A stretch of DNA of 64,000 bases from a candidate division WWE3 bacterium (GTDB lineage: Bacteria > Patescibacteriota > WWE3 > UBA101185 > UBA10185): positions 192,593-256,592 of the forward strand of contig WJKK01000001.1 in NCBI GenBank assembly GCA_014729135.1, written 5' to 3'. The notes beneath the pieces are model-generated. The model saw nothing but the letters and a program-made list of their open reading frames with translations, did not search any database and had not been told where the DNA came from. Shown one piece after another: positions 8,439 to 12,692 of the stretch (position 1 is the first letter of the stretch; every line of letters begins with the position of its first letter). The position numbers and the translations under genes are program-made.

Positions 8439-11400
8439 TTATAAGGCATTATAGGTGCTGGTGTAAGGCCGAACCATCTCACGTAATTGATCCACTGCAA
8501 TATCCGCTCCATTCTTAAAGGATTCAGCCTGGCCTCCAAAACCCTCCTCATTGTTTTGTGTTTGTTCATAATCTGCTTGTGAGTCTGCTGTCATGCCCCC
8601 TCCTATTTTTGTAACTGTTGACATTCCGGGAGGGGGTTGAAAGGCTTGTGACATTTTGAAAACGTTTTCAAATGCTTGGTTCACGTTAACGGGACTTTGC
8701 AATCCGACTTCGTAGTTAAGTTCTATGCCGACTGTATCTGAGCAGTTTAATGTTGGGGGAATTTCTTCTTTAGTGCAATTTCCTTCCTCGTCGCAAGTAC
8801 AAGCGGGATCCTCCTCACTGGGTTCACAAGGAACTTGAACAGGCTCTCCTGTACCTGGCCTGCACTTTTCCATAGGTTCCTCATCTTCTCCCCAGAAAAC
8901 CGATAGAAGTCGCATGACATCTGTAAATGCATTTTGAAGAATTTCAGCAGGGTTTAAATAAGTTACTCCATAAAAGGCGGGCGCGCTTGCTTGATAGTCG
9001 TCACATACATTATTGGTGCATTCTAATTGCACGTCGTATGCAGCTTCATAGTAACCAAATATATCTCCAGGAGGAGGGTCTCCGTTAATAGCTTCTCCTC
9101 CTTCTTTTGGGACCGGCCCTATTTTCAAAGGGCGTTCTCTGTGTCCATCTAATACTGTGAAATCCTTTGTATGTGTGGCGCGGACTATAGTGTGTCCCGA
9201 ATTAACAAACGCAGGTTCTTCTTGGTTTTCCCAGCCGGTGTATGGTTCTAAAATTGATATGGGGTTTTGTACCCAGTCTCTATCTTCCTCCGAACTTGGA
9301 ACGTAGTCTTGGGTATCCGCCAATGCTTTTAGGGCATATGGGCTGGCTAGCCCACCTGCTTTAGGACCGCTGTTTAATCCCCCTATTTGTCCTCCACACT
9401 TGCCTCCTACAGGACACTCCCCGCGGTCTCCTGGCAAGTCATTAATAGGATCATACTGTATAGCTTCTCCTCCCACACCCGTTCCCCCACTAAAAGCCCA
9501 CTTATCTCTTCGACATGTTTCACAGGTTGTTAATGAGTCCCCTTCAAATTGCTCACTCGAAAGTTTAAGAGCGCCATCTGTTTTAGTTGATTGTGTTCGA
9601 ACGGTTCCCTCCGGAAAATACTCATTGGGTAGCTTATATTGACAGGTTTCCCCTTCTAGAGGACACCATCCTGTTTCTGAACTTTCGCACTCTTCCAAAT
9701 TGCACCAATTTTCCGGATCTATAAAGTGCCTGTAAGGTTGTATTTCCGAAAGCTCTACAACCGGGTCCCTTGCATTACAATCATCATACTTTTCCTCCTC
9801 AGGATTTGATTTAAGGCAACACACATCTGTAGATTTATCCATTTTCGTGTAAAGATCTTTAAGACCTCCTTCATCTTCCGTATAAGGATTTGCCAGGTTA
9901 CTTAAGATTCCATGTGCTCTCTGACTATTTACATCTTCCCCCGGAGCATATTGTTGATGTCCCAATCGCAGTAATTCACATGTGGGTAAATTATATAAAC
10001 CATCTCCCTCAGGATTAAGCGGCAGGGGTTTAGGCCCGTTTAGGAGGCCCCCCGTTAAAAGATGCATGACCTTTAAAATAGATGTAGGTAAGGAGTCTCC
10101 CGAGTTTTGCATGGCTCCTTTACCCTCGAGTTGGTCTTCTTCCTGTAAAATTGTGATGCGTGGTGGATTTTCTCTTTCATCCACCTGTGAGAGGAGTACT
10201 CTTGCTCCCGTAGTATCTTGTGTTGGGTTAACGTAGCTTACGTCATCAATGCTTCCTCCACCATAGGCCACAGCCCTTCCGTCTCTTCTATCTGTGTAAG
10301 GCAGGAATTGTGGACAGCTGTTTGTGATTTCACCCGTAATATGGTGGCGTGCTGCAAAATCCCAACCGGCATAGCCTGCTTCCGGATCTGTGTAGTTGTG
10401 GGGTTCGTCGGGATTATGTGGATATTCAATCGTATCCGGAAAGCTCGCTCCTGCGGAATCCGGATCACAGCTAACAGTTAACTCTATTGGATACAACACC
10501 GTTGTATTTACATCTGCATCAACGTTTCCCACGATGTTTTCATATCTTGCAGGCAAAGGTTCCCCTCTCCAAACGAAGTCCATGTCCACTTTTATTACCT
10601 CTTGGATAGTATCTCCGCAGAGTATGCCTAGGTAGTTGTATTGTCCGCCCGGGCTTGTGTAATTTCCAATGTAATCCCCTTCGCCAACATCTTCTTCTTC
10701 CCTAAATCGTAGCCAACTGTTTACTGCAAACATTCCTTGAGCATCTGTTTGAGCATTGGCTTCAAACCCCGTTAAGTAATAGGGGAGTCTGTCTTCAGAT
10801 CCTCCCCCTTGGTAAACACAAATAGAGGCCCCGGATACAGGTAACTCGGTTCTTTCGACGCCGTTTTCATCTCTTTCTAAGTAGCTTGAAGTAATTTTTC
10901 CTATGATCGTGCGAGGTACTTTTGTTTCTAAATAAGCTTCTCCGCAATCTTCGTCGTAGCATTCTCCGGAAGTATCCCACCAGCACTCTGATAAGGGTTC
11001 GTTTGGTCCTGCAAGCATGTAAACCTCTCTTTCTACAAGATTGTCAAGGGCAGCTACAAAAGCTCCAAATTCGGCTGCTGAGGGTCCGTCGCGATCCAGT
11101 GCAGTTCCTATACGCAGGATAGGAATTATTCCGGGAGGTAATCCATTTATATATGTGGCAGGCCCCACGGCATCTGAAGGGTTTCCGGTTGTGCCTACAA
11201 TTCCTACAACATAACTCATTCCGGCGTCAGCTGCAGGAGTTGCATCGGCAAGCCCTCCCGCAAAGTTAGCACCTAAACCGGAACAGTTTCCTCCGCATAC
11301 GTCGGCTACTATATTGCCTCCCTGATATGAGAATTCTTCCCATCCGGGGTTGTTGTTGAAGACATTAAAGATGCTAGCACCCATGTAGTCAACGCCTCCA

Positions 11401-12692
11401 CAGGAGCCCCCTCCCAAGCATGCTAGTTCGGGTTGTAAGTTTGCCCAGTCTCCCGCAACCGTTGTACCCGTTTCGGTGATCATTAAGGGATAGTTGTTAA
11501 GTCCCGTTACGCTCATCCAGCTGTTAACAAGTCCTGTGGCGGTGCCGTAGTCGGTGTTGTAGGAGTTGCCCGCTAATCCTGCTAAACCGTCAAAGATTGT
11601 GGGGTCGGTTTGAACCATTGTATTGGCGATGGTGGCGGAGAAAAGATTGGTCATGTTGAAAGCGGGTGATAAAAGTTGGATGTGTTGCAGGTCCTCTCCA
11701 TCGCAGCTTTCCGGATCGGGAGCAGGGGCTCCAACTTCCAAAAGATCAGCTATGTCATAGCCTTCCCAACCACCAAGTCCTAGAGAAAACACCGATACTC
11801 CGGCAGCATTTACACTGCTTTTGTAGTCCAATAATTGTTGTTTGTATGTTGCAGCATCCAGAATACCTTTCCAACCGTCTCCGTGAGATTCATTTTCTCC
11901 TGCCTTGGAATCGTACCCCGCTACTGTAACAAGGACAGGAAGGTTCAGTTTAGCTCCCAAGCTGTTTACTCGTGCTGCTTCCGAATTCATCATGCCTGCG
12001 GAATTCCAGTGGGAGTGCAAACACAGATACACATTTCCGCCGTTAGCGCTGATTTCGTTTGTTATCATGTCGACGTACTGTTGTGTCATCTGTTCGGCAG
12101 TGACCGTTTCTTTAAAGTTTCCTATACAGGCAGCCCTGCCGTTATCTCTAGTGGCCTTAATAACTTCTATATCATGTCTTGCTACTTTTTCCCAATATTC
12201 TGAAGGTTCTCCGTCCATTCTAGTGATGGGTTCGTTGTATCCCTGCCAAACATTTACGTCACCCGCTTCTTCTATTTTTTGCGCAACCTGGCCATAGACA
12301 CTATTTATTATGCTTTCGGTTATGGTTTCTTCTCCCAGAAATCTTCCAACAGTTAATCCTGAAATTACTGAGGCAGGACCAAAGTTTTCATATAAAACTA
12401 CAATTTCTGCGCGGTTTTTTAGATAGTTTTCTGCAGCGGCAGCGTTTTCTCCTGAGAATCGCCAATTTGTGAAACCTCCCAAACCTCCCAGGTCACCTTC
12501 TGCGGGAGGAACATAACATCCTCTAGCCGCCATTTTTACTCCATTTACATATTCAGCTAAATTTTCTCCAATACAAATTTCTCGAGGATTTCCGGGATCT
12601 TCTTGTGCGGCAACCTCTCCCGTAAAGATACCCGCAAAAACACCTAAAGTACCCAAAAATACTATCAATACGAAGCTTAAAACCTTTTTCAT
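8439..12692 (-). CDS. Giant secreted multi-domain protein with N-terminal GH5-like (clan GH-A) glycoside hydrolase domain and Cys-rich C-terminal region
   Basis: Signal peptide MKKVLSFVLIVFLGTLGVFA. N-terminal ~450 aa carry a NEP motif (WQGYNEPITRM) and an ITETG motif, matching the GH5 acid/base and nucleophile glutamates. Rest is Gly/Cys-rich with >40 Cys. Confidence 0.55.
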   Translation of the reverse strand: MKKVLSFVLIVFLGTLGVFAGIFTGEVAAQEDPGNPREICIGENLAEYVNGVKMAARGCYVPPAEGDLGGLGGFTNWRFSGENAAAAENYLKNRAEIVVLYENFGPASVISGLTVGRFLGEETITESIINSVYGQVAQKIEEAGDVNVWQGYNEPITRMDGEPSEYWEKVARHDIEVIKATRDNGRAACIGNFKETVTAEQMTQQYVDMITNEISANGGNVYLCLHSHWNSAGMMNSEAARVNSLGAKLNLPVLVTVAGYDSKAGENESHGDGWKGILDAATYKQQLLDYKSSVNAAGVSVFSLGLGGWEGYDIADLLEVGAPAPDPESCDGEDLQHIQLLSPAFNMTNLFSATIANTMVQTDPTIFDGLAGLAGNSYNTDYGTATGLVNSWMSVTGLNNYPLMITETGTTVAGDWANLQPELACLGGGSCGGVDYMGASIFNVFNNNPGWEEFSYQGGNIVADVCGGNCSGLGANFAGGLADATPAADAGMSYVVGIVGTTGNPSDAVGPATYINGLPPGIIPILRIGTALDRDGPSAAEFGAFVAALDNLVEREVYMLAGPNEPLSECWWDTSGECYDEDCGEAYLETKVPRTIIGKITSSYLERDENGVERTELPVSGASICVYQGGGSEDRLPYYLTGFEANAQTDAQGMFAVNSWLRFREEEDVGEGDYIGNYTSPGGQYNYLGILCGDTIQEVIKVDMDFVWRGEPLPARYENIVGNVDADVNTTVLYPIELTVSCDPDSAGASFPDTIEYPHNPDEPHNYTDPEAGYAGWDFAARHHITGEITNSCPQFLPYTDRRDGRAVAYGGGSIDDVSYVNPTQDTTGARVLLSQVDERENPPRITILQEEDQLEGKGAMQNSGDSLPTSILKVMHLLTGGLLNGPKPLPLNPEGDGLYNLPTCELLRLGHQQYAPGEDVNSQRAHGILSNLANPYTEDEGGLKDLYTKMDKSTDVCCLKSNPEEEKYDDCNARDPVVELSEIQPYRHFIDPENWCNLEECESSETGWCPLEGETCQYKLPNEYFPEGTVRTQSTKTDGALKLSSEQFEGDSLTTCETCRRDKWAFSGGTGVGGEAIQYDPINDLPGDRGECPVGGKCGGQIGGLNSGPKAGGLASPYALKALADTQDYVPSSEEDRDWVQNPISILEPYTGWENQEEPAFVNSGHTIVRATHTKDFTVLDGHRERPLKIGPVPKEGGEAINGDPPPGDIFGYYEAAYDVQLECTNNVCDDYQASAPAFYGVTYLNPAEILQNAFTDVMRLLSVFWGEDEEPMEKCRPGTGEPVQVPCEPSEEDPACTCDEEGNCTKEEIPPTLNCSDTVGIELNYEVGLQSPVNVNQAFENVFKMSQAFQPPPGMSTVTKIGGGMTADSQADYEQTQNNEEGFGGQAESFKNGADIAVDQLREMVRPYTSTYNAL

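Follow-up and report, generated by a model that had tools for sequence, protein, structure and literature searches.

The gene described here occupies positions 8439 to 12692, on the minus strand, of a 64,000-nucleotide stretch of a candidate division WWE3 contig (hereafter the window), and its product of 1417 residues is 100% identical to NCBI entry MBD3365886.1, hypothetical protein GF360_00925 of a candidate division WWE3 bacterium, from an 864-kb contig. The gene probably encodes a secreted multidomain protein, the first ~575 residues of which form two (beta/alpha)8 barrels of the glycoside hydrolase (GH) clan GH-A type, one nested within the other. The outer barrel, B, is circularly permuted, while the inner barrel, A, has its strands in the normal order and carries valine where clan GH-A enzymes carry their nucleophile. 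A first-pass annotation of the same DNA had correctly placed the open reading frame (ORF) in a Candidate Phyla Radiation (CPR) organism; it had, however, described the N-terminal region as one GH5-like catalytic domain. The features of the gene are as follows.

8439..12692, minus strand: whole ORF, 1417 codons plus stop, ATG start, stop codon at 8439-8441
12606..12692, minus strand: residues 1-29, signal-peptide-like N-terminus (MKK, hydrophobic core 4-22, VAA followed by Q), by Kyte-Doolittle scan
12519..12581, minus strand: residues 38-58 (EICIGENLAEYVNGVKMAARG), helix alpha4 of barrel B, cut off from the rest of B by barrel A, by homologue alignment
11727..12497, minus strand: residues 66-322, barrel A, normal strand order, inserted in the alpha4-beta5 connection of B, by AlphaFold2 (AF2) and Foldseek
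12228..12236, minus strand: N153-E154-P155, acid/base-type motif of A, after strand 4, E154 invariant in 12 of 12 sequences
11916..11927, minus strand: T256-V257-A258-G259, strand-7 motif of A, Val at the nucleophile position, by MAFFT alignment
11307..11693, minus strand: residues 334-462, first half of B, beta5-beta8 (LLSPAFN, AGNSY, ITETG, SIFNVF), by AF2 and alignment
11466..11480, minus strand: I405-T406-E407-T408-G409, predicted nucleophile motif of B, by conservation and its place on strand 403-410
11283..11297, minus strand: C466-G-G-N-C470, junction of the old C-terminus (after beta8) with the old N-terminus (before beta1)
10968..11306, minus strand: residues 463-575, second half of B, beta1-beta4 (GANFA, YVVGI, PILRIG, YMLAGPNEP)
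10995..11009, minus strand: G562-P-N564-E565-P566, predicted acid/base motif of B, with E569 and W571 after it
8442..10967, minus strand: residues 576-1417, no recognisable domain, acidic, 27 Cys

Nesting and circular permutation of the two barrels

The first homologue search returned one full-length relative of the WWE3 protein (P0002, 40% identity) and three proteins sharing only its N-terminal ~590 residues. In P0005, both halves of this N-terminal region were found ~700 residues apart and in the order opposite to that of the query, an arrangement that first pointed to two domains in the 'GH5-like region', named A (query residues 66-322) and B (query residues 334-575, plus the helix 38-58). 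A word-indexed homologue search using a mixed A+B alignment gave 11 proteins. An exhaustive search of 1.84 billion representative proteins with a profile of the N-terminal region was far richer, with 334 matches at E<=1e-3 and 263 at E<=1e-10. The best 150 of these 334 matches, together with three sequences from the earlier word-indexed searches, made up a set of 153 sequences, whose domain arrangements were assigned with half-domain hidden Markov models (HMMs). B was found alone, with its halves in the query's permuted order, in 109 of the 153 sequences, and with the halves in reverse order in 22. A was nested before or in B, as in the query, in five sequences, followed B far downstream in two (P0005 and P0072, 700-1700 residues apart) and stood alone in a further five; the remainder showed other orders or single halves. 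On these arrangements, A and B are domains that can be separated. In the query and in P0002, P0003, P0004 and P0006, A has the helix 38-58 on one side and strand beta5 of B on the other. At 50% identity, the B family comprises 334 or more representative clusters; it has marginal Pfam coverage, and an NCBIfam scan of 25 of its members returned nothing.

The permutation of B is apparent from the order of its conserved blocks. In the classical clan GH-A order, the acid/base on strand 4 precedes the nucleophile on strand 7. This is the order found in P0013, P0014 and other homologues, which read GxNSA, R.G, GPNEP, then a helix, and then LSPAxN, AGNxY and TExG; in P0013 the two glutamates are 133 residues apart. 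B-only homologues show the opposite order, namely the CIGxxLAxYMNxVI helix, IKLLSPAFN, AGNxYN, ITETG, LFNxF, CGGxC, KIGxNSA, LEI, PIxRIG and AGPNEPxxExW. Residues 38-58 of the query align with the CIGxxLAxYMNxVI segment, which stands directly before beta5 in the B-only homologues and after NEP in those of normal order. Once the two halves of the query and its N-terminal helix were swapped back, the sequence aligned collinearly with 22 natural normal-order sequences, with GxN, R, GPNEP, ExW, Y, TE and F as invariant columns. At the junction, normal-order members start with C.KIGVNSA and end with LGxxC, and permuted members read CGGxCxKIGxNSA, which suggests the fusion of termini that were adjacent and possibly disulfide-linked. 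By these alignments, barrel B is circularly permuted and runs from alpha4 through beta5-beta8 to beta1-beta4.

An AF2 model of residues 326-600, built from a 40-sequence alignment, consisted of eight alternating beta/alpha units, with a predicted local distance difference test score (pLDDT) of 86.9 and a predicted template modelling score (pTM) of 0.88. In this model, E407 lies inside strand 403-410 and GPN564-E565-P comes after the last strand, 557-560 (the counterpart of beta4 in the normal-order homologues), so that the NEP strand stands three places before the TETG strand round the barrel, the '4/7' geometry. The helix after the last strand is absent from the 326-600 model and is supplied in the real protein by residues 38-58. 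The corresponding model of A, from 12 sequences, had a pLDDT of 87.5, a pTM of 0.88 and eight strands in normal order. No internal or tandem repeats of the barrels were found elsewhere in the window.

The query's permutation is one of several in the family. A normal-order HMM of 278 positions was run on the sequences in hand, and a topology was given to the 148 that matched. The domain started at alpha4/beta5, as in the query, in 116 of these; at beta1, the normal order, in 17; at alpha2/beta3 in seven (P0074, P0075, P0082, P0084, P0092, P0094 and P0137); and at alpha7/beta8 in five (P0030, P0040, P0044, P0097 and P0153), the other three being fragments. Like the query, 128 of the 148 representatives thus have a rotated strand order. 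In many members, including all those of the rarer permuted classes, the domain starts directly behind a signal peptide; in the rare classes it is also followed by the typical downstream modules, so that these classes are real topologies and not truncated gene calls. A tandem-duplicated B-B intermediate was not seen among the 148 representatives.

Barrel A and its lost nucleophile

When the model of A was compared with the PDB using Foldseek, 159 matches were obtained at E<=1e-3, of which the top ones were GH10 xylanases, GH53 galactanases, the E. coli GH2 beta-glucuronidase and GH26 mannanases (E 3e-6 to 6e-5, probability 1.0, template modelling (TM) score about 0.5). At the sequence level, the A profile reached just two PDB entries, both marginally, the GH5 mannanase 3wfl (E=0.044) and the GH10 xylanase 8hkg (E=0.44), and the VDVWQGYNEP of A was aligned at their acid/base motifs, VFAWELANEP and WDVVNE, respectively. 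A therefore resembles the GH10, GH53, GH26/GH5 and GH2 enzymes in fold, in its normal strand order and in a W-x-x-x-N-E-P segment aligned with the acid/base motif; it differs from them in its low identity (10-16%), in having no Pfam match, in its insertion into another barrel and, within its own subfamily, in the replacement of the nucleophile Glu by Val257. In terms of clan GH-A membership, A has the barrel and the Asn-Glu after strand 4 and lacks the Glu on strand 7.

This last difference was seen in most of the few A sequences available. E154 was invariant in all 12, and the strand-7 motif, which reads L-V-T-V-A-G in the query, had Val at the nucleophile position in 10 of the 12 by MAFFT alignment. 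The two most distant A relatives, P0149 and P0072, have Glu at this position, their TVAG columns reading I-T-E-T-G and I-S-E-T-G; alignment with hmmalign again gave Val in 10 of the 12, with one Glu and one gap. A thus retains its acid/base Glu154 with Val257 in place of the nucleophile, and the binding of a glycan without hydrolysis would be its most likely function, or else a non-canonical mechanism. Inactive lectins of glycosidase fold, such as the GH18 chitinase-like proteins, have lost one catalytic carboxylate and conserve the remaining pocket. A has likewise lost one carboxylate, and by analogy this would fit binding without cleavage, although the clan and the residue lost are different. 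If B is active, the pair it forms with the nucleophile-less A would allow one to ask whether a dead glycosidase fold has been reused for binding.

It could alternatively be envisaged that A is also catalytic, through a substitute carboxylate or as a transglycosylase, a phosphorylase-like or an inverting enzyme, so that the protein would have two active sites. All 10 Val-bearing A sequences have a glutamate, Glu195, on strand 5, within the motif GNF(K/H)E (nine FKE and one FHE), and P0149 and P0072, which keep TETG and SETG, have Thr at position 195 (FST and FAT). This coupling of Glu195 with Val257 could reflect a relocated carboxylate or plain shared ancestry. E154, H226, H228 and D261 are also still conserved, which would be unusual for a dead enzyme. 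Against this, the covariation was seen in just 12 sequences, where common descent could produce it, and a nucleophile on strand 5 is, to our knowledge, without precedent in clan GH-A. We thus regard a catalytic A as unlikely, and prefer the view of A as a binding barrel. Residues 192-195, the GNFKE region, correspond to window positions 12108-12119.

Barrel B and the clan GH-A glycosidases

In contrast to A, B has, besides the (beta/alpha)8 fold and the Asn-Glu after strand 4, the Glu on strand 7 expected in clan GH-A, and departs from the clan in that its strands do not follow one another from beta1 to beta8 in the sequence. The residues concerned are very highly conserved. In the nucleophile motif, E407 was kept in 143 and G409 in 142 of 146 relatives; in the acid/base region, N564, E565 and W571 were each kept in 146 of 147 relatives and E569 in 142 of 147; and R527 and Y378 were kept in 145 of 147 and 145 of 146, respectively. 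E407, E565, R527 and Y378 are, on these counts, under purifying selection.

PF11790 (Glyco_hydro_cc, the GH128-type catalytic core of clan GH-A) was the sole enzyme family reached by any relative of B. The native sequence of P0011 scored 25.0 bits against this profile (cut-off 21) over profile positions 88-209, and when re-ordered to the normal topology it scored 28.5 bits over positions 50-209, spanning NEP and TEIG. Three natural normal-order members, P0121, P0130 and P0145, gave collinear matches at 18-21 bits, and in family-wide scans 4 of 36, 6 of 25 and 1 of 43 members matched. The nearest modelled family to B, as judged by these profile matches, is PF11790. The solved GH128 enzyme CBM6E has N167, E168, H245, Y247, E272 and F310 in its -1 subsite, 104 residues between its catalytic glutamates and a retaining mechanism (PMC10956234). 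N564-E565 (strand 4), Y378 (strand 6), E407 (strand 7) and F442 (strand 8) of B are of the same kinds, and in the same strand order, as its N167/E168, Y247, E272 and F310, the likeness being one of residue kind and strand, compared by the published residue list (PMC10956234). B and the GH128 enzymes, which are beta-1,3-glucanases, are also both small barrels of ~260 residues. They differ in that ~90% of B relatives, and the query, are without a PF11790 match, in that the strand order of B is mostly rotated, and in their distribution, PF11790 having been described in the literature from fungal and some bacterial glucanases and the B family being almost confined to CPR bacteria.

We consider it likely, from the conservation of these residues, that B is an active glycosidase. 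B would then act outside the cell on a beta-linked glycan, as a retaining enzyme using the double-displacement mechanism of clan GH-A. In this model, Asn564-Glu565, after strand 4, would supply the acid/base and Glu407, on strand 7, the nucleophile, accompanied by Tyr378 (strand 6), Phe442 (strand 8) and Arg527 (strand 3), and A, in the alpha4-to-beta5 connection, would lie on the face of B opposite the active site.

The domains found together with B in its relatives bear on its possible substrate. Among 79 full-length B-family members, six carried a lysozyme-like SLT_3 domain, three an M23 peptidase, three a C39-like peptidase and one a GDSL esterase, and these fusions point to work on the cell wall for the B family; the query itself has none of these four domains. 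Most B-only relatives (P0004, P0005, P0007-P0010, P0017 and others) have, downstream of the barrel, a long conserved architecture that is absent from the query, with the motifs PEFHxLRPYPxSPC, LPIxGNT, NxYVSWYL, FSGPLxKLLP and FPHxGxxxxYFLxGxQxxLRPxG; it often terminates in SLT_3, and its middle part has no Pfam model. When one genome of each species was scanned by pattern, 39 loci were found to encode B relatives, most of them with CPR/Patescibacteria titles (WWE3, Woese-, Dojka-, Saccharibacteria, Nomura-, Ames-, Gottesmanbacteria and Patescibacteria group). The other loci, by bin title as deposited, comprised 11 from Gammaproteobacteria/Pseudomonadales and one each from a 'bacterium', Omnitrophota and Cyclobacteriaceae. 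The B family is, on these titles, almost entirely confined to CPR bacteria.

Several results weigh against reading the two barrels as clan GH-A glycosidases. The whole protein had zero Pfam or NCBIfam matches, even at E<=10, and phmmer found only chance matches to it among PDB sequences. The query did not match PF11790 at E<=10, whether native or re-ordered, and only ~10% of B relatives reached this family, mostly near the cut-off. A Pfam scan of barrel A, its relatives and the re-ordered B of the query gave nothing relevant. No PDB sequence was significantly matched by the normal-order B-family profile, the best glycosidase being a GH2 enzyme at E=1.6. In the Foldseek comparison of the B model with the PDB, all matches were triosephosphate isomerase (TIM) barrels, with TM scores of 0.37-0.52; one, the prenyltransferase MoeO5, was at E<=1e-3, and GH39 and GH99 were merely among the matches. 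As for A, its TM scores were only ~0.5, and sugar epimerases and orotidine monophosphate (OMP) decarboxylases were mixed among its matches. At the strand-2 position where 97 of 147 relatives bear a glutamate, the query and the relatives nearest to it bear Gly497. Finally, alignment of the B and A profiles with hhalign was weak (E=0.03), with ITETG set against VTVAG, indicating that the two barrels are not recent duplicates of each other. The generic Foldseek matches of B are expected from a rotated strand order in an order-dependent alignment, and we read them as a consequence of the permutation of the modelled chain and not as evidence against clan GH-A; they do, however, give no structural support for the GH-A identity of B. 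Gly497 (window 11202-11204) is shared with P0002 and P0006 and lies at the strand-2 end of B, where other members have the LEI motif; it may represent an altered active site or specificity in the query's subfamily relative to the family norm.

These results could also be taken to mean that B is a TIM barrel of another enzyme class, or a binding module, in which NEP and TExG merely mimic clan GH-A. Such a reading is favoured by the best Foldseek matches, which were MoeO5, indole-3-glycerol-phosphate synthase and MetE, by the failure of the family profile to find a significant PDB sequence and by the weakness of the PF11790 matches in a tenth or so of the members. Weak and unspecific fold matches are, however, just what the rotated strand order predicts. 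PF11790 was the only enzyme family to be reached, above its curated cut-off and with a better score once the order was restored, the near-invariant N-E (strand 4), Y (strand 6), E (strand 7) and F (strand 8) match the GH128 -1 subsite in residue kind, and relatives of B are fused to domains that cleave cell walls. A non-glycosidase B is thus improbable, and we retain B as a glycosidase of clan GH-A type.

The reading of the first-pass annotation, a single GH5-like barrel at residues ~30-470 with Glu154 as acid/base and Glu407 as nucleophile, is already contradicted. Its two motifs, NEP (153-155) and ITETG (405-409), are indeed present in that order and each stands at a position of the catalytic type, and there is a marginal alignment of the NEP153 region to a GH5 mannanase at its acid/base motif. 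The two motifs belong, however, to different barrels, which occur independently and far apart in homologues, and AF2 gave a complete eight-stranded barrel (pTM 0.88) for residues 66-322 and for 326-600 each modelled alone, so that a single-domain N-terminus is not supported. The partner of E407 is E565, in the overlooked second NEP (564-566, within GPNEP) 158 residues downstream; GPNEP always accompanies ITETG in the same domain, in either order, and strand 7 of the NEP153 barrel reads TVAG. Nor was the spacing right, at 252 residues about twice that of real GH-A pairs (133 in P0013 and 104 in the solved GH128 enzyme, PMC10956234). A catalytic domain of clan GH-A type is supported, but the GH5 label was not borne out, as PF00150 gave no match at E<=10.

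A wider proposal, which we put forward tentatively, is that B represents a new, near-exclusively CPR family of glycoside hydrolases, outside the reach of present family models and naturally permuted at three or more sites, that one WWE3 lineage has accepted A into it, and that, as the SLT_3 and M23 fusions of relatives suggest, it acts on the cell-wall glycans of the bacterium itself or of a host. Searches of the literature turned up no clan GH-A case of circular permutation in nature, and nothing describing the B family among CPR or WWE3 glycosidases; for permuted glycosidase barrels in general they gave only alpha-glucan-active examples, such as GH13 MalS. The established case of a glycosidase (beta/alpha)8 barrel permuted in nature is that of the GH70 glucansucrases, which are rotated relative to GH13 and keep their catalytic residues. 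GH70 enzymes, however, belong to clan GH-H, act on alpha-glucans and have one permutation site, whereas the B family has the normal and three other start points. The fold and the catalytic logic are known, and it is the wiring that is new. CPR bacteria have tiny genomes, are thought to depend on other cells and have surface enzymes that are largely unannotated, and the B family would add a class of secreted glycosidase to their surface repertoire. Its four topologies, with the insertion of one barrel into another, make it an unusually rich natural experiment on the re-wiring that a (beta/alpha)8 barrel tolerates, and it shows how re-wired enzymes escape annotation based on motif order and profiles.

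C-terminal region, gene composition and genomic surroundings

As proposed in the first-pass annotation, the protein begins with what looks like a signal peptide. In the Kyte-Doolittle scan, residues 4-22 were the sole strongly hydrophobic 19-residue window of the entire protein, and they are followed by VAA and Q; the 1417-residue product is, on this evidence, probably secreted. The enrichment in Gly and Cys that had been noted was also seen, with Cys at 2.5% and Gly at 11.3%, against 0.66% and 6.0% in the other 40 ORFs of the window, and Lys+Arg at 5.9% against 12.6%. The cysteines number 36 in the whole protein and not more than 40, 27 of them beyond residue 470, and the 'CxxC and C-x-C clusters' amount to a single CxxC (1057-1060), a single CxC (1298-1300) and a single CC (958-959). 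With but one CxxC, the idea that the C-terminal region binds metal or holds a 'CxxC cluster' was rejected. The protein is strongly acidic (Asp+Glu 15.0% versus Lys+Arg 5.9%, net charge about -130), and the Lys+Arg content of the neighbouring cytoplasmic proteins is ~12-14%.

Residues 576-1417 gave no Pfam, NCBIfam or PDB sequence match and were conserved over their full length only in P0002 (36% identity), short and weak matches (583-705 and 844-1027) being found to stretches located after barrel B in other members of the family. In P0002, which as mentioned above is the sole full-length orthologue, 28 of the query's 36 cysteines are kept, and the eight that are lost form four neighbouring pairs, 59/330, 425/431, 1002/1010 and 1057/1060, the first of which flanks the inserted barrel A. 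P0002 has in turn an extra pair of its own, 749/763. This gain and loss of cysteines in pairs, with the even total of 36, is good indirect evidence for disulfides, and residues 576-1417 are probably a disulfide-stabilised extracellular scaffold. The roles of 'stalk' and 'attachment factor' are guesses; for this protein, the evidence neither favours nor contradicts an attachment factor that degrades a host cell wall.

The genes and features surrounding the giant gene are as follows.

4510-8438: sufC, sufB, sufD-like and sufS, downstream of the giant gene, 27-nucleotide gap to the giant gene
12808-13881: divergent DUF1189 membrane-protein gene, upstream of the giant gene
13989-14063, plus strand: tRNA-Asn(gtt), overlapped by the 3' end of the serine recombinase gene
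14022-15629, minus strand: large serine recombinase, 535 residues
17410-17907, minus strand: small terminase (Terminase_2)
20054-23044, minus strand: 996-residue ORF with no Pfam match

The contig of P0002 (L040 2015-11485) has the same order, DUF1189 / giant gene / sufCBDS-nifU, with a gap of 12 nucleotides to sufC. Identities at this locus were 73% for SufB, 44% for DUF1189 and 40% for the giant protein, and the conserved order indicates that the giant gene is a stable, fast-evolving chromosomal gene of the lineage. The window segment 13989-17907 is a probable integrated element, and an origin of the giant gene from it, as a prophage-derived lysin or tail-associated depolymerase, might be suspected from the serine recombinase overlapping tRNA-Asn only 1.3 kb away, the small terminase at 17.4 kb and the G+C content of the gene (0.43-0.48, with 0.48 at 10-12 kb, against a window mean of about 0.40); this is already very unlikely, since the gene is no part of the element, from which it is set apart by tRNA-Asn and the DUF1189 gene, its order with DUF1189 and sufCBDS is kept at the P0002 locus, barrel B had no match by tblastn in 50,697 phage records and the raised G+C fits a composition rich in Gly, Ala and Pro.

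No terminator-like site was found between the giant gene and sufC, and co-transcription of this 36-Cys, putatively secreted protein with the iron-sulphur (Fe-S)/cysteine-desulfurase operon is possible from the gene layout. Upstream of the giant gene there was no obvious Shine-Dalgarno sequence, and a promoter scan called no minus-strand promoter there. A TATAAT-like box (GTTATAATTT) lies at window 12693-12740, only ~10-15 nucleotides upstream of the giant gene's ATG, and the leader of the mRNA may be very short or missing altogether.

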